The notes under the pieces are model-generated. The model was not told where the DNA came from, did not search any database, and was given only the letters and a program-made list of their open reading frames with translations. A stretch of DNA of 28,082 nucleotides from a bacterium. Lineage in GTDB: Bacteria > Gemmatimonadota > Gemmatimonadetes > Gemmatimonadales > Gemmatimonadaceae. The stretch's first letter is position 1, and each line of letters begins with the position of its first letter. Positions 2,150 through 28,080 of this stretch are shown in pieces. The translations under genes were made by a program, and so were the position numbers. The stretch is from NCBI GenBank assembly GCA_040005935.1, contig JBDTXZ010000001.1, positions 1-28,082 on the forward strand. The letters are read 5' to 3'.

Positions 2150-3268
2150 ATGTTTTACTTCGGCCTTGCCTCGCTGGTGGCCCTCGTGGCGATCTGGGGA
2201 GCCTATCCAGTCGTTGTGCGCGTGCTCGGCACATTTCGGCGCGACCGAGGTGAAGACACGTCAGGTGCGACGCCGACGGTGACCGTCATCATTGCGAGCC
2301 ACGATGAAGCGGCCGCGATCAACGCCCGCGTCGACGACGTATTGCAGGCGGACTATCCCGCGGACCGCATCGCGGTGATCGTTGCGCTGGACTCGGCCCG
2401 TGCCCGGTCTACGGTAGAGGGTTTACGTCGAGCGGATTCGCGCGTGACCGTCCTTGTCGGTGACGCGCCGGGCGGCAAGGCATCGTCGCTCAACGCCGCG
2501 GTCCGCGCTGCCCAACACGAACTGCTCGTCTTCACAGACACCGCCCAGCGATTCGAGACAGATGCGATCCGAGAGCTCGTCAGGGAGTTTTGCGATGTGC
2601 GAATTGGCGCCGCATCGGGCATGCTGGAACTCGGCCGCAGCGGCCGGATACTCAATCTTGCCGAACGGTATTGGCTCTACGAACGCTGGCTTCGGCACTG
2701 GGAGGCGCGCCTCCACTCCGCAGTGGGCGTCACGGGAGCCATCTACGCCATGCGCCGCGAGTTGTGGGAGCCCCTGCCCGCCGGGTTGATCCTGGATGAC
2801 CTCTACGGACCTATGCGACTCGTCCTTCGAGGATGGCGGGTCGGGTTCACGGAACGTGCGCGTGCGCATGACGCCCGGCGCTTCGCGGCCTCGGATGAGT
2901 ACCGGCGCAAAGTGCGCACCCTGACGGGGGTCATCCAGACGACGGTATGGCTGGACGGCATACTCAATCCAATTCGTAACCCAATCTGGCTGCAGTTCGT
3001 CTTCCACAAGCTACTGCGCCTCGTCACACCGTACCTTACGATCTTCGTTGGCGTTGCCGCAGTGTGGAGTGTCGTATTGGCCCTCTTGGCGAGTCCAATG
3101 GGCATGCGAACCTTGTCCGGGGCGGTAATACTGTCCATGCTTCTGTTTCTGGTTCCCCGAGTACGCCGCATCGTCAGGGCGCAGGTCGCGTGGGCGGTGG
3201 CGTTGCAGAGCTCCATTGTCGTCGCCACGCTGAATGGTGTCCGCGGACGATGGAACGTCTGGCAATGA
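2150..3268 (+). CDS. Glycosyltransferase family 2 with C-terminal membrane segments
   Basis: VTVIIASHDE, GKASSLN, LVFTDT, GAIYAMRR, ILDD, EYRRKVR; hydrophobic N- and C-terminal helices; GAGG Shine-Dalgarno before the ATG. Confidence 0.9.
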   Translation: MFYFGLASLVALVAIWGAYPVVVRVLGTFRRDRGEDTSGATPTVTVIIASHDEAAAINARVDDVLQADYPADRIAVIVALDSARARSTVEGLRRADSRVTVLVGDAPGGKASSLNAAVRAAQHELLVFTDTAQRFETDAIRELVREFCDVRIGAASGMLELGRSGRILNLAERYWLYERWLRHWEARLHSAVGVTGAIYAMRRELWEPLPAGLILDDLYGPMRLVLRGWRVGFTERARAHDARRFAASDEYRRKVRTLTGVIQTTVWLDGILNPIRNPIWLQFVFHKLLRLVTPYLTIFVGVAAVWSVVLALLASPMGMRTLSGAVILSMLLFLVPRVRRIVRAQVAWAVALQSSIVVATLNGVRGRWNVWQ

Positions 3269-3384
3269 CTGGGTACGGCGCGTGCCCGACTCGTCCGAAC
3301 GACATCGGGCCAAGGACGATGCACGACCTGCTTTCGATTTTCCCTGGATTGCAATTGTCACCTTTTCTGAAAGGGCCGCTGTGA
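3265..3384 (+). CDS. Possible 39-aa small ORF (MTGYGACPTRPNDIGPRTMHDLLSIFPGLQLSPFLKGPL)
   Basis: Its ATG overlaps the GT2 stop (ATGA 3265-3268) and its TGA overlaps the exosortase GTG (GTGA 3381-3384). Codons are less GC3-biased than neighbours and no family was recognised. Confidence 0.3.
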   Translation: MTGYGACPTRPNDIGPRTMHDLLSIFPGLQLSPFLKGPL

Positions 3385-4358
3385 CGACTGAAGCAGCGAC
3401 AACTGGTGACGTTGGCCGAGCATTGGGGGACCTTCGGCTTCGCGTCGACTCGCTGCGCGCCGATCCGCGTGCTGGTGCGCAGCAACTGCTCCCTGCCACT
3501 GTGACGGCCGTGACGTTCGCGTTGCTTTTCGCACAGCCCTTCGCGCAGCTGGTGCGCGATTGGTGGACGCTGCCCGAAGCCGGGCATGGTCTCCTCCTGG
3601 CGCCTGTCGCGATGTGGCTTGCCTGGAAAGCGGGTATTCGCCGCGATGCGGTGGGCAATCCAGGTATGGGCGTCGCGGTGCTCGTGCTGGCTATCCTGCT
3701 ACGCTACATGGCCGGTTTGGCGGCTGAACTATTCACGATGCGCGCCTCGATCGTGATGGCCCTTGGAGCCCTCACGATCTACCACTATGGTTTCCGCCAG
3801 CTCGTGCATTGGTGGCTGCCGTTTCTTCTCGGAGGTCTGGCCATTCCGCTGCCCGAGTTGGTGACGCAGGGGCTCGCGTTGCCACTGCAGTTCAAGGCCT
3901 CGCAGATGGGCGCCGCGCTGCTGAAAATGCGGGACGTGCCGGTGCGGCTCACGGGAAACGTCATTCGCATTCCAGGGAATGAGCTTTTCGTCACTGAGGC
4001 GTGCAGTGGTCTTCGTTCGCTCACGGCGTTGCTCGCGCTCGCAGTGCTGCTGGGCGGTCTGGTGTTGCGCAGTCCAATCACGCGTGTGGTCCTTGTGCTC
4101 CTGGCCATTCCCATCGCTGTCGTGATCAACGGCGTCCGCGTATTCCTGACCGGATTTCTCGTCTACTTCGTGGATCCGGCGCTGGGCAAGGGATTCATGC
4201 ATATCACTGAAGGGTGGCTGCTGTTTCTCGTGTCATTGGCATGCATGGGTGTGGTCGCGTGGCTGGGCGGATGGCTCGAAGGGCTTTTCTTGCGCACGCG
4301 CACTTCGCCCGGGCTCGACATGGATGCGGGTCTGTACGCCGAACCGGGTGTTGTTTGA
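3381..4358 (+). CDS. xrt: Exosortase (EpsH/Xrt family), multi-TM cysteine transpeptidase-like
   Basis: HGLLLAP, LPLQFKAS, VTEACSGLRSL (catalytic Cys), INGVRV (Arg), HITEGW (His). Start moved from the ORF-track 3234 to GTG 3381, which follows GAAAGGG; 325 aa. Confidence 0.92.
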   Translation: MTTEAATTGDVGRALGDLRLRVDSLRADPRAGAQQLLPATVTAVTFALLFAQPFAQLVRDWWTLPEAGHGLLLAPVAMWLAWKAGIRRDAVGNPGMGVAVLVLAILLRYMAGLAAELFTMRASIVMALGALTIYHYGFRQLVHWWLPFLLGGLAIPLPELVTQGLALPLQFKASQMGAALLKMRDVPVRLTGNVIRIPGNELFVTEACSGLRSLTALLALAVLLGGLVLRSPITRVVLVLLAIPIAVVINGVRVFLTGFLVYFVDPALGKGFMHITEGWLLFLVSLACMGVVAWLGGWLEGLFLRTRTSPGLDMDAGLYAEPGVV

Positions 4359-11983: not shown

Positions 11984-13408
11984 TCATCCTGTCGTTGCCG
12001 TTCGTTCCTTCTGCGTTCGCTGCACCAGCATCAGGAATTTCCGTGCTTGCACGCTTCGATCGAACTGCCCGTCGCGACCGACTGGCAAGGGCCTCTCACC
12101 GGCCGAAAACTGCTCGTACCGGTGCCGAATGAGTAACGTGATTCCGTCCACGTCCTGAGGACCCACGACGTCGGCCTCGCTCCCACGCAACAAGTCGGCG
12201 AGCGCACTTTCGGGATGTGCCACGACGAGTAGCCACGCGGCGAAACGCACATACTCGTAGATCTTCGCCGGAAGGGACGTGTCCCGGTCCTGCGCGAGCG
12301 GAAGGCTCAGCAGCACCGTTGCGCCGGCCTGAAATTCCAACACGTCTTTCCGCGACAACAGCCCACGCAGCGACACATACGCCGCAATTCCTTCCTCCTC
12401 GGCGATCTCCGACACCCATTCGCCGTCCATGTCGCCAGCCAGTTCGACGACGAACTGCTCAGGCGTGAGTCCGAGATCGCGGACCACGCGCGCGGACGCA
12501 CGAAAGACGAGACGCGGATCCCGGTCCGAATAGATCGAACCGGCAAATCGGATGCTGAAACGGCCGTCGCGAGTGGGGTCTGGCAACGGATCGCTATCCG
12601 CTCCATTCCGCACGATCTCGATGCGCGATGCGCTCTCGGGATACGTGCGCCGCATCATCGCGCCCACGTGCTCGGTGTTCATCGTGATGAGTGACGCAGC
12701 ATGCACGCACCGCGCTTCGTGCCGGCGCGCGAGACGGAACCAGAGCGGGCTCGCGATGGACTCAGGAAGTCGCTCCTGGAGGCTCCACGGATCGCGCATG
12801 TCCATGACGAACGGCAAACCACTCGCTCGGGAAATCAGCCTGCTGGCTTCGTGCGCCAGATGTGGCGGCGACGAGCTGACCACGAACTGATATCGATGCA
12901 TTCGCGCCAGCGCCACGCCGAGCTTCGCGGCTGCACGTGCCCAGTTTCCGCCTCTCGCATACTCGAGCCAGGCAAAGTACGCGCGAACAATCCCGCGCCC
13001 GCCGCCGGACTGCTTCTTCACCTCGTGATGCGTCAGCGCGTCGACGCGCTGCACTGATTCGCGTGCGAGCAGTCGGCTTATTCTCGGCCAGGCAATCTTG
13101 TGCGCGCGCTCGACCAGCGGTTCACGATCCGCCACCGAAAACAGTCGCAGGTTGGCGCTGAAGTGCTCGAGCCGCGCAGGATCGAGATGCTCGACGTCGC
13201 GAAAGTCGCGCGAGATTACATCCACCGCCCAACCAAGCGAAATGAAGAACCGCGCCATCTCTTGCCAGCGCAATCCGCCCACGACGGGATCGGGTGGAAA
13301 GTGATAGCTGACCACCAGCATCCGCGGAGCGTCCACCGGCGCGGCCGTGTTGCTGGCGAAATACAGCGTACCGTTCGGAGGTGCAGGCTGTTCCAGTGGC
13401 GCAGTCAT
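11984..13408 (-). CDS. GT-B fold glycosyltransferase (GT4-like)
   Basis: LVVSYHFPP...GGLRW, VVSSSPP, DMRDPW, FAGSIY, LPAKIYEY. Start moved to ATG 13408, which overlaps the flippase stop (ATGA); 474 aa. Confidence 0.85.
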   Translation of the reverse strand: MTAPLEQPAPPNGTLYFASNTAAPVDAPRMLVVSYHFPPDPVVGGLRWQEMARFFISLGWAVDVISRDFRDVEHLDPARLEHFSANLRLFSVADREPLVERAHKIAWPRISRLLARESVQRVDALTHHEVKKQSGGGRGIVRAYFAWLEYARGGNWARAAAKLGVALARMHRYQFVVSSSPPHLAHEASRLISRASGLPFVMDMRDPWSLQERLPESIASPLWFRLARRHEARCVHAASLITMNTEHVGAMMRRTYPESASRIEIVRNGADSDPLPDPTRDGRFSIRFAGSIYSDRDPRLVFRASARVVRDLGLTPEQFVVELAGDMDGEWVSEIAEEEGIAAYVSLRGLLSRKDVLEFQAGATVLLSLPLAQDRDTSLPAKIYEYVRFAAWLLVVAHPESALADLLRGSEADVVGPQDVDGITLLIRHRYEQFSAGERPLPVGRDGQFDRSVQARKFLMLVQRTQKERTATTG

Positions 13409-14937
13409 CCGCCCGCCCGCAACTCGGCCAGCATCGTTTTGAGTGTTCGCACACGTTCGCGATGCCCTAACAGCAGCGTGAACGAATAGGCAATCGCGCC
13501 GACGACGGAGAGCTCCAGAAGCTGAGCCAGCGCCGTCCAGCCATCCACCAGCCAGTGTCGCGTCGCGAGCACCGCAACGGCCATCACGATGACACCGCTC
13601 AACGCCGGCCAGAGCGCGCCCACATAGTGCTTCGCGGGCAACTCGATTGCCTTGAACGCCGCCCGGTACATCGGCGCAAGAAAGAACGGATGCACGATGA
13701 TCCACGCGGCGGCCACACCCGCCGCTCCCCACCGTGACGCGATGACGAACGCGATTGGGAAGCCGATTGCGCCCGCGACGTTCGATTGCATCGGCAGCTT
13801 GGTGTTGCCAAGCGCCGTGAGAACTTGCGGGACAAGCGGTGAGATGGAACGAACGCCAGAGTAGATCGCCAACAATTGAAGGGGGAGAATGGCCCCTCTC
13901 CACGCATCACCCAGTGCGGCCAGGACGAACGGTTCGGCGACGAGTGCGAGGCCCACTGACGCAGGGAAGGTGATCACCGCGATGACTTCCGTTATCCCCA
14001 GCAAGTAGCGACGCAACGCCGCGTGATCGTGTTGCGCCGCCGCGAGCACGGAGGGCGTCACACGAACCACCATCGACGTCACCTTCTCGATGGGCACATT
14101 CGCCATCGTCCATCCAAAGGAGTACGCACCAAGCGCCGCCTTGCCCAACATCTTGCCGACGACCGCAAAGTCGGCATTCGAAAAGGCGTACCAGGCAAGA
14201 CGCGCGATCAGCATGTGCGAGCTGAACGTCAGCGCCGCGGTGAGCTCGCTGCGCCTTGGCGTCGCGAACGGAGACGGGCGCGCGATGACTAATGTCGTCG
14301 TCAGTACGACAGCGCCCACGATCTGGCCAATCACCAGCGCCCAGAAGCCTGCGCCTTTCAGCGCGAGCAACACCGTCACCGCAGCCACAAGAATTGTCTG
14401 CGCACCTTCCGCCATTGCCAGCAACTTGAACCGCATCTCCCGCTGCAACAACGATGTCGGAACCGTCTGCAATCCACCAAGAAACAGCGTGATGCTGAGT
14501 GCGAGAATGATCGACGTGACCTGCGGAACACCGAACGCCAGCCCAACGAATTGCGCCGCTGCCAGTGACACGAGGGTCGCGACGATTCCGAACCCGACGG
14601 CGATCGTATTCACCTGCGCGATCTGGTCGCGCGACATCGACCGCAGTGTCACCACCGCCGAGCCGATGCCGAATTCGCTGAGCATCGTGACGAGGCCCAT
14701 GTAGATGACCGCCATGCCGACAAGCCCATATGCATCCGGGCCGAGCACGCGTGCCACGACGAGCGTCGAGATCCAGGTGGCCGCCTGCCCGCCCCATTTT
14801 ACGGCGCTCGTCCAGATGATCCCGCTCATCAGCGAGCGATCGAGATTCCGATCGCGGCCAGCCTCCCGGATCTCTTCCTCTTCTATCGCTACGCGCTCGG
14901 ATCGCTGGTCGGCGGACTCGGGTACGTCGACCGTCAC
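13405..14937 (-). CDS. wzx: Wzx-type polysaccharide repeat-unit flippase (PST family)
   Basis: Many TM segments; VVARVLGPDAYGL, EFGIGSAVV, LLQREMRFK, NADFAVVGKMLG..ALGAY; 510 aa. GTG overlaps the upstream stop (GTGA). Confidence 0.92.
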   Translation of the reverse strand: MTVDVPESADQRSERVAIEEEEIREAGRDRNLDRSLMSGIIWTSAVKWGGQAATWISTLVVARVLGPDAYGLVGMAVIYMGLVTMLSEFGIGSAVVTLRSMSRDQIAQVNTIAVGFGIVATLVSLAAAQFVGLAFGVPQVTSIILALSITLFLGGLQTVPTSLLQREMRFKLLAMAEGAQTILVAAVTVLLALKGAGFWALVIGQIVGAVVLTTTLVIARPSPFATPRRSELTAALTFSSHMLIARLAWYAFSNADFAVVGKMLGKAALGAYSFGWTMANVPIEKVTSMVVRVTPSVLAAAQHDHAALRRYLLGITEVIAVITFPASVGLALVAEPFVLAALGDAWRGAILPLQLLAIYSGVRSISPLVPQVLTALGNTKLPMQSNVAGAIGFPIAFVIASRWGAAGVAAAWIIVHPFFLAPMYRAAFKAIELPAKHYVGALWPALSGVIVMAVAVLATRHWLVDGWTALAQLLELSVVGAIAYSFTLLLGHRERVRTLKTMLAELRAGG

Positions 14938-16679
14938 GAAGAATGGGACATCGTCACGTCCCAGGTTTTTTGAATGGTATCGGCCGCATCGACCACATAG
15001 TCACGGTTGCTGAGCGTCGACCAGTGAACCGCGGCCGCGACCGACAGGACGTACTTTTTCATCAGGCTGCTCGCAAAGTTCGGAGACCGCAACGTGGCCC
15101 ACGCGCGTCGCATCGTTTTCCGCCGAATGAGCGCACGCTTAGCGGCCAGAACTGACGGCGCCCACTGATAGTCAAGAGCCTTGGTGGGAGGAATCGGACA
15201 CGGAACGTGACCGGGGTACGCCTGCCAGTAGGTCTTCGAGACATACTCCGGAAATTCATTCAACCACGAAACATAGAACGCGTGATACAACCGCGCTTCA
15301 ATTGGAATCGACGCGATGATCGCTGCGAACTCGGAATCGAAAAACGGTAGCTGAAGCTCAACGCGATGCTCATCGATCCCCTCGAAGTGATGATGAAGGT
15401 GCCGATGCTGATCGTTCTGCATCAGGAACAGGTAAAACGTCTGCGACAAATCGCCCGCATGCAGCCGTTTCAGCTCTGCGATCACGCCGTTGCGCGGCGC
15501 TTCCGCCATACGCGGCACAATTGAAGGCTGAAGAAGCCGCAGTGGCACGTAGCCGTGCTCGGCCTGCAGATACTCATCGGCCACAGCATCCAAGTCTCCT
15601 GCGGCCGCGCGCTCCATGATCGTGGGACGCAGGTAAACATGGCCGAGGGTAACGCTGCCGCCATCGCCGGACCACATCACCTGTGGACGCTCGACGCGCG
15701 ACTTGATTGCGGCCGTCGACTTAGCGTGCGCGTTTGCAATCATCATCGACCAGCGTGAATCGATCGGGTCGTCAACGCCGTGACTCTCGTGTGTCGTGCC
15801 TGCCACCTGAGCCAACGCGGCACCGTACTCCCGATCTTCCGTACCCTCAGGCGAAAAGTTGAACGAATGCACGTCGACGTCGTCATTGCGCAGCGCGGCA
15901 ACCACGACTCGTGAGTCCAACCCACCGCTCAGGAAGGCGGTTGTCGCGTTATCGCCTCGTTGCCGAATGCGGACCGCCTCCATGAAGGTATCGTATGCCG
16001 CCCTGCTCAACGTTGCGAGATCCTTCGTCGAACGAGGAATGTCCTGCCAACGCCAATACTCCGCGCTCGTTATGCCATCGGCAGTGACCTCGACCACCTC
16101 GCCGGGCTTCAAGAGGGTGATGTTCGCATAGGACGTCCGGGCGCCAAAGCTGAAGCCAAACGCCACGCGCTCGGCCAGGCCGTCGAAGTCGATCGTCTTC
16201 GGCAGGAGGACGCAGGCTTCGAGCAGCCGGATCGTGCTCGAGTACACCACCGTGTCGCCATCCGTCCACACGTACATGGGACGAATGCCAAGCTTGTCCG
16301 TGGCAATGACGAGACGCTTGCTGGCGCGATCATAGTGGGCGACAGAAAATGCGCCGCGAGCCTCCGCGAGTCGCATGTACTCGCGATCCTGCAGCATCCG
16401 ATGCAACTCCGCGGTATCCGTGGCCCTGGAGCGCTGCGACGGATCGAGCGACGAGACAATCGGCTCTCCTGCAACGAATGTCACAGCATCTGCTTCATCG
16501 ACCAGTCCTTTCGACTTGAGTGCGCCGATATCGACTTTGACCAGAAGCGCACAGTCGTCTCGCACCACTTCGAGACGGTCGGACGGGTTCCGCGAGAGAT
16601 GGCGTTTCATCGCCGCGAGCAGGTCGTCCGCCTGCTGCAGAGCCCCTCGTCGGCGGAACGCGCCGGCGAGCAATGTCAC
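14934..16679 (-). CDS. Asparagine-synthetase-fold protein with a degenerate glutaminase domain (N-terminus MTLLAG instead of MCGIAG)
   Basis: ATDKLGIRPMY (cf. ARDRFGVKPLY), PP-loop FLSGGLDSR, WSGDGG, ELQLPFFD. Preferred start GTG 16679 after a GGGG SD; alternative 16706. Neither start supplies an N-terminal Cys. Confidence 0.8.
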   Translation of the reverse strand: MTLLAGAFRRRGALQQADDLLAAMKRHLSRNPSDRLEVVRDDCALLVKVDIGALKSKGLVDEADAVTFVAGEPIVSSLDPSQRSRATDTAELHRMLQDREYMRLAEARGAFSVAHYDRASKRLVIATDKLGIRPMYVWTDGDTVVYSSTIRLLEACVLLPKTIDFDGLAERVAFGFSFGARTSYANITLLKPGEVVEVTADGITSAEYWRWQDIPRSTKDLATLSRAAYDTFMEAVRIRQRGDNATTAFLSGGLDSRVVVAALRNDDVDVHSFNFSPEGTEDREYGAALAQVAGTTHESHGVDDPIDSRWSMMIANAHAKSTAAIKSRVERPQVMWSGDGGSVTLGHVYLRPTIMERAAAGDLDAVADEYLQAEHGYVPLRLLQPSIVPRMAEAPRNGVIAELKRLHAGDLSQTFYLFLMQNDQHRHLHHHFEGIDEHRVELQLPFFDSEFAAIIASIPIEARLYHAFYVSWLNEFPEYVSKTYWQAYPGHVPCPIPPTKALDYQWAPSVLAAKRALIRRKTMRRAWATLRSPNFASSLMKKYVLSVAAAVHWSTLSNRDYVVDAADTIQKTWDVTMSHSS

Positions 16680-16890
16680 TTCAACCCCCGCATCGGGGCG
16701 ATGCACTCTGCACTCACGAAATGGCCTCTGACAGTGACGGAAACTTGACGCGCGATTGCCATTATTTGTCCCTTGCGGGACGACTGGCAGGGGTCGATGT
16801 CACGTATTCTAAGCAATCGTTAGCTTTGCATCTGGTCGCCGCCCGCACCATTCACCAAGAACCGTGAGCGCGCTATTCCAACCGAGGATG
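16679..16890. promoter_or_regulatory. Divergent intergenic region, presumed to hold promoters for both flanking operons
   Basis: About 210 nt, AT-richer than the CDSs, between head-to-head genes. No convincing sigma70 or sigma54 consensus pair was found by eye. Confidence 0.45.
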
Positions 16891-17978
16891 TGAAGCCATC
16901 GGCCGTCCGCGTCTGCGTCGTTGCGCCATCGCTCGGCATCCTTGGCGGACAGGCCGTCCAGGCCCTTCGGCTCGTGGAGCACCTCAATCTCGGCAGCGCC
17001 GTCTCGGCCGACCTGTTGCCCGTGAATCCCGCCTTGCCCGGCCCCTTTGGCCTGCTTCAGAAGATCAAGTATGTGCGCACAGTGGTCACCGAGATCCGCT
17101 ACATCGCCTCGTTGCTCGCGAGGCTTCCGCGCTACGACGCAATTCACGTCTTCTCCGCGTCGTACTGGTCGTTCATGCTCGCGCCATTGCCCGCCATGCT
17201 CATCGGGCGTCTCTACGGAAAAAAGGTGATCCTCAACTACCACAGCGGCGAAGCGGAGGATCACCTCACGCGATGGCCATCCGCCGTGCGTCTCATGCAA
17301 CTCGCCGACGAGATCATCGTGCCCTCCGAATACCTCGTTGATGTGTTCGCGCAGTTCGGCATCCGCGCTCGCGCAGTCTTCAACTTCGTGGAAGTCGCGA
17401 ATATCCCCTATCGGCGACGCACGTCCCTCGCCCCACGGTTTCTCTCCAACCGAAATCTCGAGGCGCTCTACAATGTCGCGCTCGTGCTTCGCGCCTTCGC
17501 CCAGGTCCAGGGCGAGTGCCCGGAGGCGGCGCTCGTCGTCGCCGGCTTTGGCAGCCAGCGCGCCATGCTGGAATCGCTCGCTCGCGAACTCGCCTTGCGC
17601 AACGTCGTCTTCATTGGCCGAGTGCCGTCGGACGAAATGGGGGCACAGTACGATGCGGCGGACATATTCCTGAATGGTTCGGACATCGACAACATGCCGC
17701 TCTCCATACTCGACGCCTTTGCCGCAGGCGTGCCCGTAGTGACGACCGACGCCGGTGGCATTCCGTACGTGGTTCGGAACAACGAGAACGGATTCCTCGT
17801 CTCACGAGGCGATCACACGGCCATGGCGCAGGCATGCCTTGACCTGCTTCGGGACGACGCGCTTGCCGTGCGCATAGCCGATAGTGCCCGCAAGGAATGC
17901 CTCGATCGCTATGCCTGGCCCGTCGTGGCCGAACAGTGGGAAGCGCTCTACGGCTCTCGGAGCGCGGCGCAGCGATGA
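16890..17978 (+). CDS. Glycosyltransferase family 4
   Basis: HVFSASY, LNYHSGEA, FLSNRNLE, DNMPLSILDAFAAGVPVVTTDAGGIP; GAGGA SD before the GTG. Confidence 0.9.
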   Translation: MKPSAVRVCVVAPSLGILGGQAVQALRLVEHLNLGSAVSADLLPVNPALPGPFGLLQKIKYVRTVVTEIRYIASLLARLPRYDAIHVFSASYWSFMLAPLPAMLIGRLYGKKVILNYHSGEAEDHLTRWPSAVRLMQLADEIIVPSEYLVDVFAQFGIRARAVFNFVEVANIPYRRRTSLAPRFLSNRNLEALYNVALVLRAFAQVQGECPEAALVVAGFGSQRAMLESLARELALRNVVFIGRVPSDEMGAQYDAADIFLNGSDIDNMPLSILDAFAAGVPVVTTDAGGIPYVVRNNENGFLVSRGDHTAMAQACLDLLRDDALAVRIADSARKECLDRYAWPVVAEQWEALYGSRSAAQR

Positions 17979-20377
17979 CGATGGTTGGAGAGTGGGGGGC
18001 AAGAGCGATCCTCAAACGGTTCGGCAAGCTTCGTGGGCGGTCGCTCGCCGAACTTCGCGAACGACTGGGCCAGGCAGTCACCGCCGAGTTGGAAATCCGT
18101 CGACTCGCATCCACGGTGGGAGAGCTCTCCGATCGCGCATTCTGGTCCCGGTTCGATCCATATGCGCTAGGCCGCGAATCCCAGTCTGCCGAATCACTGC
18201 GCGCGCACTTCGCCAGTCGTACCTCCCCGGCCTTCTTCGCAGGGGTACGCGACGGGACATCTGCAGCCGAGTTGAACTCGCCTCGCTGGTCGGAGGAGCG
18301 CCTGGAGTTGCTCCTCGCCGCCGACAGGATTCTCGCCGGCACGTACGACCTCCTCGGCTACACCGATCTCTCGTTCGGCAACCCGATCGACTGGCATTTC
18401 GACCCCATCAGCAACGTCCGGTCGCCGCGGCAGCATTGGAGCCGGATCCCATACCTGAACGCCGACGTCGTCGGCGACCACAAGGTCATCTGGGAGATCA
18501 ATCGCCATCAGCACTTTTATGTACTCGGCCGCGCGTTTCAGGTGACCAAGCGCGCCGAGTATGCCGAGAGATTCGTGTTGGACCTGACGTCGTGGATGGA
18601 CGCGAATCCACCCAAACAGGGCGTGAATTGGGCAAGCACCCTCGAGGTCGCATACCGGGCGATTTCGTGGGTCTGGGCCATCGAATTGTTTCGCGAATCA
18701 CCGGCGCTCACACCCGCGATTCTTCAGCGTGCGCTCGGCTATCTGTATCTCCATGGTCGCCACGTCGAACGTTACCTGTCGACCTATTTCTCTCCGAACA
18801 CCCACCTGACCGGCGAAGCGCTCGGCCTGTTGTACCTCGGTACCATGCTCCCTGAGTTTCGCCGGGCCTCGATTTGGCGGACACTGGGTTGGTCCATTCT
18901 CGAGAGAGAATTGCAGCGGCAGGTGCTGGAAGACGGAGTCTATTTCGAGCAGGCGACGTACTATCACCGCTACACGGTCGACATCTACCTCCACGGCCTG
19001 ATCCTCGCCAAGGCGAATGGCGTCGCGATTCCTGCGGCCATGGAGGCGCGCCTTGCTTTGGCAGCTGCCCACTTGGCTGACCTGATGAGGCCTGACGGCA
19101 CGATCCCCGTCATCGGAGATGACGATGGGGGTCGGCTGGTCCAGCTCGAGGAGCAGAGTTTCACAAATGTCCGCGCCGCCCTCGGCACAGCGTCCGTAGT
19201 GCTCGGGAAGCCGGAACTGGCTGCCGTGGCCGGTAGGGCCACCGAGGAAGTTCTCTGGCTGTTGGGTTCAGCCGGCGCGCAGACAGTCGACGCGGCTGGT
19301 GTTGGCTCGCCTCCAGCGCATCAGTCTGTCCTTTCGCCAGTTGGTGGCTATGCCATCATGCGTGATGGATGGGGCGCCGCCGCCAACCACGCCATCATCG
19401 ACTGTGGGCCACTGGGCGCAATGAACTGCGGGCACGCGCATTCGGACGCATTGTCGATTGAAATTACGGTTGCCGGATGTCCCATGATCGTGGACCCAGG
19501 CACGTTCACCTATACCAGCTCGGCCGTCGACCGCGACGCCTTCCGCCACTCGGCAGCGCACAATAGCGTCACCGTGGACGGGCAGTCGAGCTCCGTGTCG
19601 GCCGGGCCGTTCTCGTGGGGTTTCCGAGCCGATGCTCAGGCGAACGAGTGGTGGGCGGGAACGCTTGTCGACCGCTTGGTGGGAAGCCACCCCGGTTTCC
19701 AGCGTCTGCCAGCGTCCGCGATCCATCACCGAGAGGTTCTTTTCGTTCGGGGACAGTACTGGGTCATCATCGATACAGTTCTGAGCATAGGAAAACACGA
19801 GGCGGTGGCACACTTTCACACGGCCCTGGGATCGTCGATTGCGCCACTGTCGCCGTCCAGTGCGTGGATCGAAACACCGTGCGCCTCAGGCCGCCGTCGG
19901 CTATTTTTCGCTGTTCTAGGGGACGCCGTCACGCTTGATTGGGGGTTGGACTGGGTCTCCCCGGCGTATGGCAGTCGGCAACAGGCGCCGCTCGGCCGAG
20001 TTGTGAGTCGAGGCGCCGGTCGTCGAGACATTGTGAGTGTGCTGGTGCCCGCAAGCGATGGTCAGTCGGTGTCCGTCGCCGAAGTGCCCGCCAAAGCGGG
20101 ACGCGCACTACTCATCGATCGTCCTGATACGCATGACCTCATTCTCTTCGGAGCGGAGGGCGGCGTCAGTGTGGGACAGATGGAGGTTACGGCAAGCACT
20201 GCGTTCGTACGGCGTGGTTCGCCGAAGGGCAAGATCGAGGCGATGGCTCTGTTCGGCGGGAGCGCCGGGCTTGTCGCCGGCCCGCTCGAATTTCGGGTGA
20301 CGACGGGTGCGGAAGCCGTGCGCGGTACGAATGGTTGGTCGATTACGGGCGATGGCCAAGTGAACGAACGCTCGTGA
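17975..20377 (+). CDS. Heparinase II/III family polysaccharide-lyase-like protein
   Basis: KVIWEINRHQH, NTHLTGEALGL, EQATYYHRY, GDDDGG, GHAHSDALS, DPGTFTY, AHNSVTVDG. ATG 17975 overlaps the GT4 stop (ATGA); 800 aa. Confidence 0.9.
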   Translation: MTMVGEWGARAILKRFGKLRGRSLAELRERLGQAVTAELEIRRLASTVGELSDRAFWSRFDPYALGRESQSAESLRAHFASRTSPAFFAGVRDGTSAAELNSPRWSEERLELLLAADRILAGTYDLLGYTDLSFGNPIDWHFDPISNVRSPRQHWSRIPYLNADVVGDHKVIWEINRHQHFYVLGRAFQVTKRAEYAERFVLDLTSWMDANPPKQGVNWASTLEVAYRAISWVWAIELFRESPALTPAILQRALGYLYLHGRHVERYLSTYFSPNTHLTGEALGLLYLGTMLPEFRRASIWRTLGWSILERELQRQVLEDGVYFEQATYYHRYTVDIYLHGLILAKANGVAIPAAMEARLALAAAHLADLMRPDGTIPVIGDDDGGRLVQLEEQSFTNVRAALGTASVVLGKPELAAVAGRATEEVLWLLGSAGAQTVDAAGVGSPPAHQSVLSPVGGYAIMRDGWGAAANHAIIDCGPLGAMNCGHAHSDALSIEITVAGCPMIVDPGTFTYTSSAVDRDAFRHSAAHNSVTVDGQSSSVSAGPFSWGFRADAQANEWWAGTLVDRLVGSHPGFQRLPASAIHHREVLFVRGQYWVIIDTVLSIGKHEAVAHFHTALGSSIAPLSPSSAWIETPCASGRRRLFFAVLGDAVTLDWGLDWVSPAYGSRQQAPLGRVVSRGAGRRDIVSVLVPASDGQSVSVAEVPAKAGRALLIDRPDTHDLILFGAEGGVSVGQMEVTASTAFVRRGSPKGKIEAMALFGGSAGLVAGPLEFRVTTGAEAVRGTNGWSITGDGQVNERS

Positions 20378-20437
20378 TGCGGTGTGCGGTGACAGGCTGG
20401 CTGGAATCAAACATTACCAGATTCTCGAGGTTGTAGC

Positions 20438-22405
<1,968 letters not shown>

Positions 22406-22521: not shown

Positions 22522-23841
22522 ATGTCGAACTCCGTTAGCGTTTTTGGTCTAGGCTATGTGGGCTGCGTGAGCGCAGCGTGTCTCGCGCGCGAAGGACATA
22601 CCGTCGTTGGCGTAGACGTCAGCCGCAGCAAGGTGGACATGATCCAGCGCGGTATGGCGACGATCGTCGAGAACGGCATCGGCGAGCTCGTGTCCGAAAT
22701 GGTCACCGCGGGAACACTCACTGCCACGACCGATGTCGCCGACGCAGTGATGCGAACGGAGATTTCGCTCGTCTGCGTCGGCACCCCGAGTCAGGCAAAC
22801 GGCGGCCTCGACCTCACGTATGTGCGTCGCGTCGCCGCGGAGATTGGTGCGGCGCTCAAGAACAAGAGTGCGTGGCATGTCGTTGTCATTCGCAGCACCG
22901 TGTTGCCCGGTACCACGGCGGACATTGTCACGCCAATTCTCGAAGCGGAGTCGGGCAAGAAAGCTGGCGTGGATTTCGGTGTCTCGATGAATCCCGAATT
23001 CCTGCGCGAAGGCACGTCCATCAAGGATTTCGACGATCCGCCCTTCACCGTAATCGGCGCAGCAGACGACCGCACCGCGAAGACCGTCGGCTCACTCTAC
23101 CAGGGGCTCACGGCACCGGTGCGCGTCGTGCCGCTCGCTGTCGCCGAAATGGTCAAGTACGCGTGCAACAGCTTTCACGGGCTCAAGGTCGCCTTCGGCA
23201 ACGAAATCGGGAGCATCTGCAAGGCGCTCAACGTGGACAGCCACGAAGTCATGCGGATTTTCTGCGAAGACACAAAACTCAACATCGCTGCCACGTACCT
23301 TCGCCCGGGCTTTGCGTTCGGTGGCTCGTGCTTGCCGAAAGATCTTCGTGCACTGTCCTATCGCGCCCGGCAGCTCGACGTCGAGACACCGGTGCTCGCC
23401 GCCGCGCTCTCGAGCAACGAGAAGCAGATCTCGCGCGCCTTCGACATGGTTCGCGCCACGGGCTGTAAGCGTGTGGGCGTGCTCGGCCTCGCATTCAAGG
23501 CGGGCACCGATGATCTGCGCGAATCGCCAATCGTCACGCTCGTCGAGCGGTTGATCGGCAAGGGCATGCAGCTCGCGATTTATGATGGCCACGTCTCGCG
23601 CGCGAACCTCATTGGCGCCAACCGCGAATACATCGAGAACGAGATTCCGCACATCTGGTCGTTGATGCGCGACTCCGTGGAGGAGGTCGTCGAGTTCGGC
23701 GACGTCGTCGTGATCGGGAACGGCACCAAGGAGTTCCGCGACATTCAGCCGACACTGCGCGATGGCCAGATGGTCGTCGATCTGGTGCGTGCGTTTGGGT
23801 CGCGCGCATCGCAGGGATTGTATCAGGGCATTGCTTGGTAG
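22522..23841 (+). CDS. algD: GDP-mannose 6-dehydrogenase (AlgD-like) / UDP-glucose dehydrogenase family
   Basis: VSVFGLGYVG, CVGTPS, RSTVLPGT, NPEFLREG, RPGFAFGGSCLPKD (catalytic Cys), FKAGTDDLRESP, IGANREYIENEIPHI. The last motif closely recalls Pseudomonas AlgD from memory; the substrate is unproven. Confidence 0.85.
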   Translation: MSNSVSVFGLGYVGCVSAACLAREGHTVVGVDVSRSKVDMIQRGMATIVENGIGELVSEMVTAGTLTATTDVADAVMRTEISLVCVGTPSQANGGLDLTYVRRVAAEIGAALKNKSAWHVVVIRSTVLPGTTADIVTPILEAESGKKAGVDFGVSMNPEFLREGTSIKDFDDPPFTVIGAADDRTAKTVGSLYQGLTAPVRVVPLAVAEMVKYACNSFHGLKVAFGNEIGSICKALNVDSHEVMRIFCEDTKLNIAATYLRPGFAFGGSCLPKDLRALSYRARQLDVETPVLAAALSSNEKQISRAFDMVRATGCKRVGVLGLAFKAGTDDLRESPIVTLVERLIGKGMQLAIYDGHVSRANLIGANREYIENEIPHIWSLMRDSVEEVVEFGDVVVIGNGTKEFRDIQPTLRDGQMVVDLVRAFGSRASQGLYQGIAW

Positions 23842-23843
23842 CG

Positions 23844-25073
23844 ATGCGCATTCTCTGGGTCAAAGCGGGAAAGATCCTTCCGGTCGATACCGGGGGGCGA
23901 ATCCGTTCGTACAACATCCTTCGTCACCTCGCGGCGCGGAACGACACGGTCTTTCTCTCCTATTACCCGGGCGCGCGCGACGAAGAATACGAACGCGAGC
24001 TGGGCGAAGTCTTTCCCGGCGCGATCACGTTTCCGGCCGGGGCACCACATGGCCTGGCCGCGCAGATGCTGCATTACGCACTTCGTGTCCCACGCGGCGC
24101 GCCATACGCCGTGTCGAAATTCACGTCGTCGTCGGTGCAGCGATCCGTGCTCGACATCATCGGCGATTTTCATCCGGACGTCGCAGTGTGCGATTTCCTC
24201 TCGGCATCGCTCAACTTCCCCGATCCGCTCCCAATTCCCTCCGTGCTCTTTCAGCACAACGTCGAACACGCGCTGTGGGATCGGCAAGCAAGGCATGAAG
24301 CCAATCCGGCAAAGAGGGTGGTCTACACGATGGAAGCGGCGAAAATGCGCCGCTACGAACGAGCCACTGTGGCGCGCTTTCATCACGTCGTCGCTGTTTC
24401 GGAGAATGATCGTTCACTGATGTCCGTGATGACGGACCCATCGCATCTCACCGTCGTTCCAACGGGAGTGGACGTCGCGGCATACAAGTCGGACGCCGAT
24501 AGCGGACACGATCACAGTGTGATGTTCCTCGGCTCCATGGATTGGCCCGCGAACATCGACGGCGTCGAGTTCTTCTGCGAGGCGATCTGGCCGCGCATCA
24601 TCGCTGCCGTGCCCGACGCAACATTTCACGTCGTCGGTCGCAATCCCCCGCGTCGAATCACTCGTCTCGCATCGGAGTCGGTGAAGATCGTGGGCGGTGT
24701 GAAGTCGGTCATCCCACATTTGCGCGAATCGCCGGTGTTCGTTGTACCACTCCGTATTGGTGGTGGCACACGACTCAAGATCTACGAGGCAATGGCGGCC
24801 GAACGCGCCATCGTCTCAACCACTGTCGGCGCTGAAGGCCTCGACTATCGCGAAGGTACCGACCTGCTGCTCGCTGACGACGCGACCGCGTTTGCCGACA
24901 ACGTCATCGCGCTGCTCCGCGATCCCGTTCGTCGTCGCGCGCTCGGCAGTGCTGCTGGTGAAACGGCCGCGCGGTTCGATTGGTCAGCCGTCTCGCTCGA
25001 ATTCGAAACCGTGTTGCGCCGAGCGATCGATGACTTTTCGTCGCGCGCCAGTCCGCTCCTCGCACCGGCCTGA
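23844..25073 (+). CDS. Glycosyltransferase family 4 (type often found in exosortase-linked EPS loci)
   Basis: MRILWV...P.DTGGRIRSYN, FQHNVE, FLGSMDWPANIDG, VVPLRIGGGTRLKIYEAMA. ATG 23844 lies 2 nt after the algD stop. Confidence 0.9.
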   Translation: MRILWVKAGKILPVDTGGRIRSYNILRHLAARNDTVFLSYYPGARDEEYERELGEVFPGAITFPAGAPHGLAAQMLHYALRVPRGAPYAVSKFTSSSVQRSVLDIIGDFHPDVAVCDFLSASLNFPDPLPIPSVLFQHNVEHALWDRQARHEANPAKRVVYTMEAAKMRRYERATVARFHHVVAVSENDRSLMSVMTDPSHLTVVPTGVDVAAYKSDADSGHDHSVMFLGSMDWPANIDGVEFFCEAIWPRIIAAVPDATFHVVGRNPPRRITRLASESVKIVGGVKSVIPHLRESPVFVVPLRIGGGTRLKIYEAMAAERAIVSTTVGAEGLDYREGTDLLLADDATAFADNVIALLRDPVRRRALGSAAGETAARFDWSAVSLEFETVLRRAIDDFSSRASPLLAPA

Positions 25074-25074
25074 C

Positions 25075-26298
25075 GTGCGCGCCATTATCCTGGACGGAAA
25101 CGAGAATCAATCCGTCGCCGCCACCAGGTCGCTCGCACGTGCCGGGTATCGAGTCACCGTCGGTTCAACTGAGTCCTGGTCCAAGGCGGGTTGGTCGCGG
25201 TCCGCCGCTGATTCATTCACCTATCCGTCGCCCGGATCGGATCCCGATGGGTTCGTCAAGCGAATCGCGCGCGAGCTCGAGCGCGGTGGGCCCGCCGTTG
25301 TATTGCCGATGACCGAGTCGTCGACGATTCCCGTCTCCCTCCATCGCGAAGAGATCGAAGCAGCAGGTGGAAAGATGTTGCTGCCGCCGCACGACGTACT
25401 GCTTCGCGTATTCGACAAGAGCGGGATGACAGAGCTCGCACGTTCGCTCGGCATTGCGGTTCCGCGCACGTGGGTGGTGGAGGCAGGCGCCGACGCCGCA
25501 ACGCTCGCAGGTGAGCTGCCTTATCCCGTCGTACTCAAGCCGAATGTGTCGCAGCAGCGAACGTCGTCTGGTGGATCTGCGCCGACCGGCGCTCCTGCGT
25601 ACGCGACAAACGCGCAGCAGTTCGCCAACACGCTTGCTGAGCTCCGGGCGCGGTGCAGTTCGGTGCTCGTTCAGGAGTTCGTAGTCGGAACAGGAGCGGG
25701 ATACTTTGCACTTATGCGAAGTGGCGACCTGCGAGGTGAGTTCGCGCACCGTCGTATTCGCGACGTACGTCCGACTGGTTCTGGCAGCGCGCTGCGCGAA
25801 AGTGTCACACCCACGCCGGCGATTCGCGACGCGTCGTTGAAGTTGTTGCGCGCCGTTGGATGGCACGGCGTCGCGATGGTCGAGTTCCGCTTGCGCCCCG
25901 ATGGTACTCCGGTGTTTCTCGAGGTGAACGGCCGATTCTGGAACTCCCTCGCTCTCGCGGTGCACGCGGGCGTCGACTTTCCCCTTGGCGTGGCAAAACT
26001 TGCCGAACATGGCGATGTCGAGCCGCTCGCGGCAGGTCGTCCCGGCGTGCGCTGTCGCTGGTTTCTGGGAGACGCGCGACATCTTGTCTCGGTGTGGCGC
26101 GGCGCGCCTGCTGGCTATCCCGCGGCCTTTCCCTCTCGCATCGGTACGACGCTCGCAGAACTCATCCCTTCGCTCGGCACGAAGCACGATAATTTTTCGC
26201 TCAGCGATCCGATGCCTGAGGTTGGAGACTGGCTGCACTTCTTCGGGCGCAAGCTGCCGCGCGCGCTCGCTGGAAAGCTCAAGGGAGGCGACGCGTGA
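25075..26298 (+). CDS. ATP-grasp carboxylate-amine ligase-like protein
   Basis: YPVVLKP, VLVQEFVVG, GVAMVEFR, FLEVNGRFW. Start moved from 24742 to GTG 25075, 1 nt after the GT4 stop; 407 aa. Confidence 0.85.
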   Translation: MRAIILDGNENQSVAATRSLARAGYRVTVGSTESWSKAGWSRSAADSFTYPSPGSDPDGFVKRIARELERGGPAVVLPMTESSTIPVSLHREEIEAAGGKMLLPPHDVLLRVFDKSGMTELARSLGIAVPRTWVVEAGADAATLAGELPYPVVLKPNVSQQRTSSGGSAPTGAPAYATNAQQFANTLAELRARCSSVLVQEFVVGTGAGYFALMRSGDLRGEFAHRRIRDVRPTGSGSALRESVTPTPAIRDASLKLLRAVGWHGVAMVEFRLRPDGTPVFLEVNGRFWNSLALAVHAGVDFPLGVAKLAEHGDVEPLAAGRPGVRCRWFLGDARHLVSVWRGAPAGYPAAFPSRIGTTLAELIPSLGTKHDNFSLSDPMPEVGDWLHFFGRKLPRALAGKLKGGDA

Positions 26299-27089: not shown

Positions 27090-27874
27090 GCGCCGCGCTC
27101 GAGTCGACCGCGTTCCTCATGTACCACGAACTCGAACGCGCGGGTCGGCCGCTCTGCTCCACTGAGCCTGGGTACGTTCGGTACGTCGTCACGGAAGACG
27201 ACTTCCGCGCGCAGATGGATCATGTTGTCGCAACCGGTAAGCGCGGCTTGGGCGTGTCAGCGTGGCTGGACGCCGACGACGCTTCCGCGGCGCGAACAGT
27301 CGTCCTCACCTTTGACGACGGCTGCGAAACGGATCTCATCGCGGCCGCGCCACTGCTCGAGGAGCGCGGGTTCGGTGCGACGTGCTACCTCACCGTGAAT
27401 TTTCTCGATCGTCGCGGCTATCTCACTCGCGCACAGGTGCGCGAACTCGCCGCAGCAGGCATCGAAGTCGGCTGCCACTCGATGTCGCACGCGTACCTGA
27501 GCGACCTCGACGACGTCGCGTTGCATCGCGAAATCGTGCAGTCCAAGCACGAGCTCGAGTCGATCTCCGGCGTCGCGATCCGATCCTTTTCGTGCCCGGG
27601 CGGCCGCTATGACGATCGCGTTCTACCCATGGCTCGGGCGGCGGGCTACGACAGCGTGACGACGAGCAAGGCCGTGTGGAATGTGCACACACACCCCGCG
27701 GACCTCCTCGGCCGCATCGCGATCTTGCAGGACACGAGCATGGAGCGCTTCGTCGCCACCCTGAGCGGCCGTGATATTGGCGCGCGAAAGCTGCGCGACT
27801 CGGCGCTCACGGCCGCGAAATCCATACTCGGCAACTCACTGTACGAGAAGCTTCGCAAGACCGTGCTCGGCTAG
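27086..27874 (+). CDS. Polysaccharide deacetylase (CE4/NodB-like)
   Basis: FLMYHEL, VVLTFDDG, EVGCHSMSH, FSCPGG, GRIAI. TTG 27086 overlaps the PHP stop (TTGA); 262 aa. Confidence 0.88.
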   Translation: MSAALESTAFLMYHELERAGRPLCSTEPGYVRYVVTEDDFRAQMDHVVATGKRGLGVSAWLDADDASAARTVVLTFDDGCETDLIAAAPLLEERGFGATCYLTVNFLDRRGYLTRAQVRELAAAGIEVGCHSMSHAYLSDLDDVALHREIVQSKHELESISGVAIRSFSCPGGRYDDRVLPMARAAGYDSVTTSKAVWNVHTHPADLLGRIAILQDTSMERFVATLSGRDIGARKLRDSALTAAKSILGNSLYEKLRKTVLG

Positions 27875-28080
27875 CCAGCCAGGCTCGCGATTTCTGCGTC
27901 AGCAGGCAGCGCCAGATACCCGTTCTTCAGCGCTTCCATCCAGAGATCCAGCACCAGCACGCGCCACAGGAAATGGCTGTGGTCACGCCGCCCGCTTACA
28001 TGCTCGCGCACGAGGCGCAGCACGCTTGCGTGATCCACGTACTCGTACACACCGCGCTCCTCACGCACCAGCGTGTCGAG
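27871..28080 (-). CDS. 3' end of a further asparagine-synthetase-family gene (continues beyond the window)
   Basis: LVREHVSGRRDHSHFLWRVLVLDLW matches the AsnB C-terminus and the in-window asnB (LVASHTSGEQNHSERLWSLINLEIW). The frame is open to the window edge. Confidence 0.7.
   Translation of the reverse strand, partial: LDTLVREERGVYEYVDHASVLRLVREHVSGRRDHSHFLWRVLVLDLWMEALKNGYLALPADAEIASLAG

Follow-up and report, generated by a model that had tools for sequence, protein, structure and literature searches.

Class II glutamine amidotransferases are textbook N-terminal nucleophile (Ntn) enzymes with a cysteine at their N-terminus, which raises the question what a protein with the fold of asparagine synthetase B (AsnB) does if it begins with a threonine instead and if its gene overlaps that of a polysaccharide flippase. 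Such a gene is found in a 28,082-nucleotide stretch of DNA, here called the window, from a bacterium of the Gemmatimonadaceae (NCBI GenBank assembly GCA_040005935.1, contig JBDTXZ010000001.1, positions 1 to 28,082). We refer to it as the target and to the family formed by it and its relatives as family T. At a probability of roughly 0.5, our favoured reading is that the target is a functional member of an undescribed AsnB-fold clade which uses a Thr/Ser nucleophile, keeps the nucleotide-binding PP-loop within a rebuilt catalytic pocket, and forms a C-N bond on a polysaccharide repeat unit before this unit is flipped across the membrane. While the AsnB fold as such is known, a large, coherent, cross-phylum and flippase-linked clade with Thr or Ser in place of Cys1 is new, and a full-text literature search returned no paper describing family T.

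The answer depends first of all on the correct N-terminus. The target open reading frame (ORF) ends at 14934, and the GTG at 16679, read as Met, yields the start (M)TLLAG. There is no in-frame Cys codon upstream of this start, and the alternative in-frame GTG at 16706 prepends VHRPDAGVE alone, which contains no Cys. M-[T/S]-x-x-A-G is the exact start of more than 200 target homologs, and the GGGGG run, the GTG and the upstream sequence are unchanged in a 90%-identical locus (L011); because of these two observations the 581-aa reading of the gene is secure at the level of the sequence. The public gene call for the target (P0002, 590 aa) starts at the GTG at 16706 and takes in window positions 16680-16706 of the minus strand; homology sets the start at 16679, and database copies of such proteins may conceal the M-T N-terminus.

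Three kinds of alignment place Thr2 on the Cys1 position. In the alignment of the family profile to PDB sequences, G6 of the target lies on G5 of E. coli AsnB (1CT9), which puts Thr2 on Cys1. An hhalign comparison of the family with seven canonical AsnB-type proteins, taken from the window and from related loci, gave a probability of 99.7% over 481 columns with T2 on C2, and in structure alignments residue 2 of the target model pairs with residue 1 (Cys1) of 1ct9, 1ecb, 1xff and 6gq3. The AlphaFold2 model, built from 34 homologs (pLDDT 93.4, pTM 0.93), matches TsnB9 (7YLZ; Z 31.3, 505 residues aligned), E. coli AsnB (1CT9; Z 28.6, 441 residues), beta-lactam synthetase (Z 27.1, 418 residues), human ASNS (Z 24.6, 438 residues) and CarA (Z 23.7, 416 residues), and its N-terminal domain matches the glutaminase domains of PurF, GlmS and EgtC with Z 14-16. 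A beta-strand spans residues 2-9 of the model, so that Thr2, as modelled, lies behind the initiator Met at the start of a strand, as the Ntn fold demands. An earlier note, made from the DNA letters without database searches, had claimed both an AsnB fold and an MTLLAG start with Thr on the Cys1 position. The fold is borne out by the match of the model to AsnB and beta-lactam synthetase over both domains, the Thr position by the alignments to E. coli AsnB, PurF, GlmS and human ASNS, and the Met-Cys start by which the same note would have been refuted does not exist upstream. In domain searches, Pfam detects Asn_synthase (5.6e-13), GATase_7 (1.2e-9) and also GATase_6 in the target. The NCBIfam scan returned sub-threshold generic AsnB-type matches only (TIGR01536, 96.9 bits against a cut-off of 267.1; TIGR03108, 91.4 bits against 816.9 and over residues 104-342 only; lasso cyclase NF033535, 72.1 bits against 525), and no model in it claims family T.

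Relatives of the target are numerous and conserved in a characteristic way. A word-indexed search found at least 688 of them, with full-length identities of 38-81% among the best 120, and HMMER against 1.84 billion cluster representatives returned 530 clusters at E<=1e-30, of which the best 150 align nearly all end to end. Of 222 clean N-termini, 166 have Thr at residue 2, 52 have Ser and four have another residue, so that a hydroxyl is present in 218/222 (98%). Thr as second residue permits the excision of Met; a mere need for a small residue in Met excision would vary more, and the restriction to Thr and Ser therefore points to a functional nucleophile or a hydrogen-bonding group. A conservation alignment of 217 sequences (median identity to the target 38%) shows G71, D128, G252, G253, D255, R257, G338, P445, D448, H466, Y469, W485, Q486, Y488 and Q505 to be invariant, and A5, G6, R30, D50, G109, R133, S251, S256, G340, G341, S342, E433, D436, E441, H491, C494 and W506 to be at least 95% conserved. 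Conservation is similar in the two domains, the mean frequency of the commonest residue being 0.52 in the N-domain and 0.535 in the C-domain. Compared with the 90%-identical homolog in L011, the target gene has a dN of 0.055 and a dS of 0.34, and since dN/dS is thus about 0.16 it is under purifying selection. Judged from these sequence comparisons, the target is a functional member of a large clade and no one-off decay product.

Which parts of the canonical active sites have been kept can be read from the alignments, using E. coli AsnB numbering mapped via the in-window asnB and the profile and hhalign alignments. At the glutaminase site, R30 (96%), G71 (=G75, 100%), E/D72 (=E76, 87%) and D88 (=D98, 81%) are retained, and SRNPSD at residues 29-34 of the target stands in place of HRGPD. 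In the synthetase domain the target keeps the PP-loop SGGLDS (SGG(L/M)DSR across the family), retains the ExRxPFxD block as E441..P445-F-x-D448, and has SGDGGSV where the in-window asnB reads TGEGSDEV; an acidic residue (Asp/Glu) occupies residue 339, the E348 position, in 93%. A block N422-D423-Q424-x-R426, conserved to 89-94% in family T, is aligned by hhalign to the segment that we take to hold D384/R387 of E. coli AsnB, the correspondence being an assumed one. Family-specific invariants, namely H466, Y469, WQxYPGH..C and YQW, replace canonical synthetase residues, and within WQxYPGH..C residues W485, Q486 and Y488 are invariant and H491 and C494 at least 95% conserved. The pocket around the nucleotide loop thus appears to have been rebuilt from a new set of invariant residues (His, Tyr, Gln, Trp and Cys). 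SRNPSD for HRGPD, the intact SGGLDS and a synthetase motif without its Asp had all been described in the earlier note and are confirmed here, but the last of these changes extends further than had been noticed, to Val343 and to the Lys region.

The genomic neighbourhood connects family T with polysaccharide export. A minus-strand unit of three genes opens with the target, whose stop overlaps the GTG start of wzx (GTGA, 14934-14937) and the wzx stop overlaps the ATG of the third gene (ATGA, 13405-13408). The third gene recurs 3' of wzx in three further Gemmatimonadaceae loci (L011, L012, L024). Both 4-nt overlaps had been claimed in the earlier note and are real, and the GTGA overlap supports its suggestion of co-transcription with wzx; its label GT4 for the third gene is weak, since the match to Pfam Glyco_transf_4 (21.5 bits) lies below the cut-off of 28.5. 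Scanning one genome per GTDB species yielded 204 family loci. The best 80 of these, from which the taxonomy was taken, belong to Gemmatimonadaceae, to Pyrinomonadaceae, Blastocatellia and other Acidobacteriota, to Nitrosomonas (including the cultured N. eutropha), Rhodoferax, Roseateles, Massilia and Janthinobacterium, and to single metagenome-assembled genomes (MAGs) labelled Nitrospirae, Chloroflexi and Alphaproteobacteria. Every ORF within 7 kb was clustered, unlabelled beforehand, for the 51 loci whose flanks were long enough. A Wzx/Polysacc_synt_3 flippase is the most frequent neighbour (35/51 loci, always on the same strand), followed by GT4 (22/51) and GT2 (21/51) glycosyltransferases, a CE4 polysaccharide deacetylase (21/51, all on the same strand), a Wzy_C-like protein (16/51), a PhyH-like dioxygenase (13/51), an Asn_synthase protein, i.e., a canonical AsnB (12/51), and an exosortase (8/51). 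The linkage to Wzx spans Gemmatimonadota, Acidobacteriota and Betaproteobacteria, so that the association of close homologs with polysaccharide genes, on which the earlier note had staked its proposal, holds; tblastn with the window Wzx likewise found a same-strand flippase within 3 kb in 36/57 loci.

The gene order differs among lineages. In Pyrinomonadaceae it is Wzx > CE4 > T > GT2 > PhyH > GT4 > exosortase > EpsI > TPR, with the exosortase 1-5 kb downstream of T in loci of this type. A second type reads GT2 > T > AsnB ... GT4 > heparinase-like > AsnB and comes with an ATP-binding cassette (ABC; Wzm/Wzt) exporter, Comamonadaceae have FkbH-like > MaoC/SDR > GH127-like > Wzx > T, Nitrosomonas has Wzy-like < T > Wzx, and Gemmatimonadaceae, the window included, have T > Wzx > GT4-like. 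Exosortase genes are present in 9/10 other carrier genomes, and in at least three carriers one apparently lies on the T contig, 14-34 kb away, the contigs being matched by number and coordinates only; family T itself was matched in only one of 14 control genomes. In the Comamonadaceae loci L074-L089 the FkbH-like, MaoC-dehydratase/SDR and GH127-like genes stand about 3.8-8.5 kb upstream of T, a gene set that hints at a pathway for decoration of the acyl or glyceryl type there. In one Gemmatimonadaceae MAG (L003, identical to L014; 11783-18819) T adjoins a lasso-peptide-like set of PqqD, Transglut_core3, an AsnB-type cyclase, an ABC transporter and NTP_transf_5, an adjacency that is probably coincidental.

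How such a protein might work can be outlined from these data. Its initiator Met would be removed and Thr1 exposed. In the N-domain, the Thr/Ser hydroxyl together with the free alpha-amine would, as in hydrolases and transferases of the Thr/Ser Ntn type, act on an amide or acyl donor, and in the C-domain ATP, bound via the PP-loop, would activate an acceptor group on the repeat-unit sugar, which might be nucleotide-activated or undecaprenyl-linked. A C-N bond, an amide or a related one, would thereby be made on the cytoplasmic face, after which the modified unit would be flipped by its co-translated, cognate Wzx. Thr1 as the nucleophile, the consumption of ATP, the substrate and the bond formed are predictions of this scheme. 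An active enzyme rather than a relic is suggested by the two-domain architecture, the Thr/Ser-only N-terminus, the partly kept amino-acid pocket, the invariant nucleotide loop and the new invariants, and a working hydroxyl-nucleophile Ntn site rather than a dead domain by the equal conservation of N-domain and C-domain and by the retained Thr/Ser. Wzx flippases are selective for their own repeat unit, which would explain the co-inheritance of T and wzx. The target is also not simply redundant, because a separate canonical Cys1 AsnB is present in the same locus.

Several observations weigh against this scheme. Asn74, whose side chain forms the oxyanion hole in AsnB, has Ala (residue 70 of the target), Val or Thr as its equivalent, and Arg49 of AsnB, which lies within a deletion of five residues, lacks a clear counterpart in the target. 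Ser342 (214/217 sequences, 99%) occupies the position of the canonical Mg-binding Asp351, Val343 (89%) stands for Glu352 of the Glu-Tyr dyad, and Trp/Gln of WQxYPGH..C are found at the position of the canonical Lys449 of RxKxGF. A preprint describes a Glu-Tyr dyad matching E352/Y357 as conserved in five AS-like enzymes, its Tyr being essential in PesC (PMC13060819). With the D351, E352 and K449 equivalents lost, canonical carboxylate adenylation may not occur, and with Asn74 lost in addition the chemistry may differ from canonical carboxylate adenylation coupled to ammonia transfer. Furthermore, family T is patchy and was found in only 3/151 sampled genomes of the window's phylum, a rarity in keeping with an accessory gene in polysaccharide loci that vary, and not with a lineage-wide one. 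Finally, tblastn with the two UDP-sugar dehydrogenases of the window found such genes near homologs in only 2/54 loci, and for this reason a uronate was dropped as the general substrate of the family.

In comparison with known systems, the target would in function be closest to an AsnB-type amidotransferase or amide ligase. It shares the two-domain fold (class II amidotransferase/Ntn plus PP-loop synthetase) with E. coli AsnB and with enzymes of the WbpS/TIGR03108 type, and family T lies in exopolysaccharide loci and there frequently next to an enzyme of this type; it differs from them by Thr/Ser for Cys1, Ala for Asn74, Ser/Val for D351/E352 and WQxYPGH for the K449 region. Cys1 position, synthetase motif and model score accordingly set the predicted protein outside the glutamine-hydrolysing AsnB enzymes, and its score sets it outside TIGR03108 even though it shares the exosortase-associated exopolysaccharide location of that family. 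The hydroxyamidotransferase TsnB9 is the best PDB match in sequence (phmmer, 4.4e-10) as in structure, but identity is 15%, TsnB9 comes from a secondary-metabolite pathway and the target from a polysaccharide locus, and the family T motifs have no counterpart in the aligned TsnB9 segments shown. Threonine or serine serves as nucleophile in Ntn enzymes such as proteasome beta subunits, gamma-glutamyltranspeptidase, plant-type asparaginase and ornithine acetyltransferase. By analogy the target would share with these a hydroxyl residue at the mature N-terminus, where an Ntn-fold strand begins, a kinship that rests on the superfamily fold; unlike them, since they expose the nucleophile by autoproteolysis, it would need removal of Met only, as class II amidotransferases do.

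A first alternative supposes that the N-domain is silent and that the PP-loop domain alone adenylates the carboxyl of a uronate or another sugar and couples it to an external amine, which could be ethanolamine, an amino acid or the amine of a deacetylated sugar. Known Cys-less AsnB-fold enzymes have a silent N-domain and use a free amine, and beta-lactam synthetase, carbapenam synthetase and lasso cyclases resemble the target in that they are without an N-terminal Cys, keep the PP-loop and match the model with Z 23-27, beta-lactam synthetase and CarA being strong structural matches. The loss of Cys1 and of the Asn74 equivalent, the CE4 deacetylase that directly precedes T in 21/51 loci and could expose a sugar amine, and the presence of two UDP-sugar dehydrogenase genes in the window fit this alternative too. 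We nevertheless regard it as unlikely. The N-domains of those enzymes are degenerate, a condition which the earlier note had extended to the target; this part of its claim is not supported as it was put, as Thr/Ser at position 2 is 98% conserved, the N-domain still has R30, G71 and mostly E72 and D88, and conservation is as high in it as in the C-domain, all of which is unexpected in a silent domain. Moreover, mapped indirectly via AsnB, the Tyr348 position in the catalytic Tyr348-Glu382 dyad of beta-lactam synthetase (E348 of AsnB) carries Asp or Glu in family T, Asp339 in the target, and the Lys443 position (Lys449) carries Trp/Gln, so that on residue identity the target is neither a beta-lactam nor a carbapenam synthetase. 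Nor is it a lasso cyclase as far as the NF033535 score below the cut-off and the gene content indicate, as the partners of such cyclases (a PqqD-like RRE, a transglutaminase-like protease and a precursor) were not found among the window ORFs scanned.

The target might also be a non-catalytic, nucleotide-binding pseudoenzyme that acts as structural or regulatory partner of the locus AsnB or of Wzx, a role for which the loss of several canonical catalytic residues in both domains, the canonical AsnB directly adjoining T in 12/51 loci and the very tight adjacency to Wzx can be cited. A partner of this kind had been offered as a second option by the earlier note, and it has become less credible: the PP-loop is invariant, a new invariant polar and aromatic set has arisen (H466, Y469, Q486, Y488, H491, C494, Q505), the Thr/Ser-only position 2 points to a needed hydroxyl, dN/dS is low, and most loci have T without an adjacent canonical AsnB. 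It is improbable and the least likely of the three, after an enzyme with coupled domains and one with a silent N-domain. An ordinary glutamine-dependent AsnB or WbpS-type amidotransferase with a missed Met-Cys start, which the Pfam matches to Asn_synthase and GATase_7 and the public gene call at 16706 might have suggested, is ruled out by the absence of an upstream in-frame Cys, the shared start of more than 200 homologs, the same start in L011, and the TIGR01536 and TIGR03108 scores far below their cut-offs.

Returning to the reading of a coupled enzyme with a hydroxyl nucleophile, the nearest biological parallel is found in Porphyromonas gingivalis, in which wzx (porS) is followed by an asnB (PGN_1234) that has been proposed to make the glucuronamide within the linking sugar of type IX secretion (T9SS), and in which a deacetylase (VimE) and an aminoacyl transferase act on this sugar (PMC7468200). 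The authors note a parallel gene set in PEP-CTERM/exosortase loci (PMC7468200). As in the window, an AsnB-type gene directly adjoins wzx, and a deacetylase takes part in the pathway, so that by analogy the order Wzx-CE4-T-...-exosortase would fit the picture of porS, asnB and deacetylase. However, PGN_1234 resembles, by the authors' PSI-BLAST, the asparagine synthases of exosortase loci with TIGR03108 as top domain, and is thus of the canonical type (PMC7468200). Rather doubtfully, one may extend the analogy to a new class of enzymes with a Thr/Ser nucleophile and a rebuilt PP-loop site, which together with Wzx, and often CE4, would make a nitrogen-bearing lipid-linked sugar, a possible exosortase acceptor for PEP-CTERM proteins that would parallel the T9SS linking-sugar pathway. 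In Rubrivivax gelatinosus a transposon insertion was recovered in an 'asparagine synthase' gene adjoining wzxC (RGS1_10435; PMC3684757), a candidate member of family T; should it belong to the family, loss of aggregation would be a mutant phenotype already on record.

A widespread clade that has switched to Thr/Ser in an otherwise retained pocket would add to the chemistry known for the AsnB fold and would offer a natural test of the effect of the nucleophile on Ntn catalysis. The tight pairing with Wzx across phyla suggests that the flippase requires or recognises a modification which has so far escaped notice. The loci of family T are of the exosortase/PEP-CTERM exopolysaccharide kind and belong to many bacteria of soil and water, nitrifiers and floc-formers included, and the cultured carriers Nitrosomonas eutropha and Massilia phyllostachyos make the question directly testable.

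Within the window, the minus-strand target unit diverges from a plus-strand unit with genes for a GT4, a heparinase II/III-like protein, the canonical AsnB, a UDP-sugar dehydrogenase, a further GT4, an ATP-grasp protein and a CE4 deacetylase, and an exosortase/EpsI pair lies at 3.2-5.1 kb. The in-window asnB, used as comparison gene, has the motifs MCGICG, HRGPD, FLSGGIDS and LTGEGSDEVLGGY; with TIGR03108 it scores 607 bits, under the cut-off of 817. The coordinates of the features are collected in the table.

Table. Position and strand of the target gene, its motifs and the accompanying genes in the window.
Feature	Position	Strand	Remarks
Target gene (family T), AsnB-fold	14934..16679	-	581 aa, two domains, GTG start
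N-terminal Ntn / class II amidotransferase-like domain, about residues 1-214	16038..16679	-	Pfam GATase_7 and GATase_6
Thr2 codon, position of class II amidotransferase Cys1	16674..16676	-	profile, hhalign and structure alignments
PP-loop SGGLDS, residues 251-256	15912..15929	-	G252, G253, D255, R257 invariant (217 sequences)
SGDGGS, residues 337-342, for canonical (S/T)GEGSD	15654..15671	-	motif reads SGDGGSVTLGHVY
WQAYPGHVPC block, residues 485-494	15198..15227	-	aligned to canonical RxKxGF region
GGGGG, Shine-Dalgarno-like	16685..16689	-	5 nt before GTG start
Wzx / MOP-family flippase	13405..14937	-	Pfam Polysacc_synt_3 8e-60; NF007773 1.4e-52
Third operon gene, weakly GT4-like	11984..13408	-	4-nt ATGA overlap with wzx
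Canonical Cys1 AsnB-type amidotransferase (comparison gene)	20438..22405	+	TIGR01536 522 bits, above cut-off
Exosortase (start uncertain)	3234..4358	+	Pfam Exosortase_EpsH 1.8e-58; TIGR02602 above cut-off

Some minor features of these genes were also observed. An acidic stretch of about 36 residues extends the N-terminus of the window Wzx ahead of its first membrane segment (14830-14937, minus strand). The tblastn alignments of Wzx in L011, L012 and L017 start 0-6 nt past the end of the target gene and are consistent with an overlapping, upstream wzx start. When called as longest ORFs, the ATP-grasp and exosortase genes reach tens to hundreds of bases into the genes upstream of them (23835-25073 with 24742-26298, and 2150-3268 with 3234-4358), and their true starts probably lie further downstream. 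An open-ended ORF at 27871-28080 on the minus strand has an end, DHSHFLWRVLVLDLWMEAL, that resembles the C-terminus of canonical AsnB-type proteins, and probably represents a third AsnB-fold gene, truncated where the window ends. The triad of GT4, heparinase II/III-like protein and canonical AsnB (window 16890-22405, plus strand) occurs as well in L001 (15713-21335) and L002 (15168-20788); its order is unchanged in Acidobacteriota loci that also carry family T, and it seems to form a separate conserved module.

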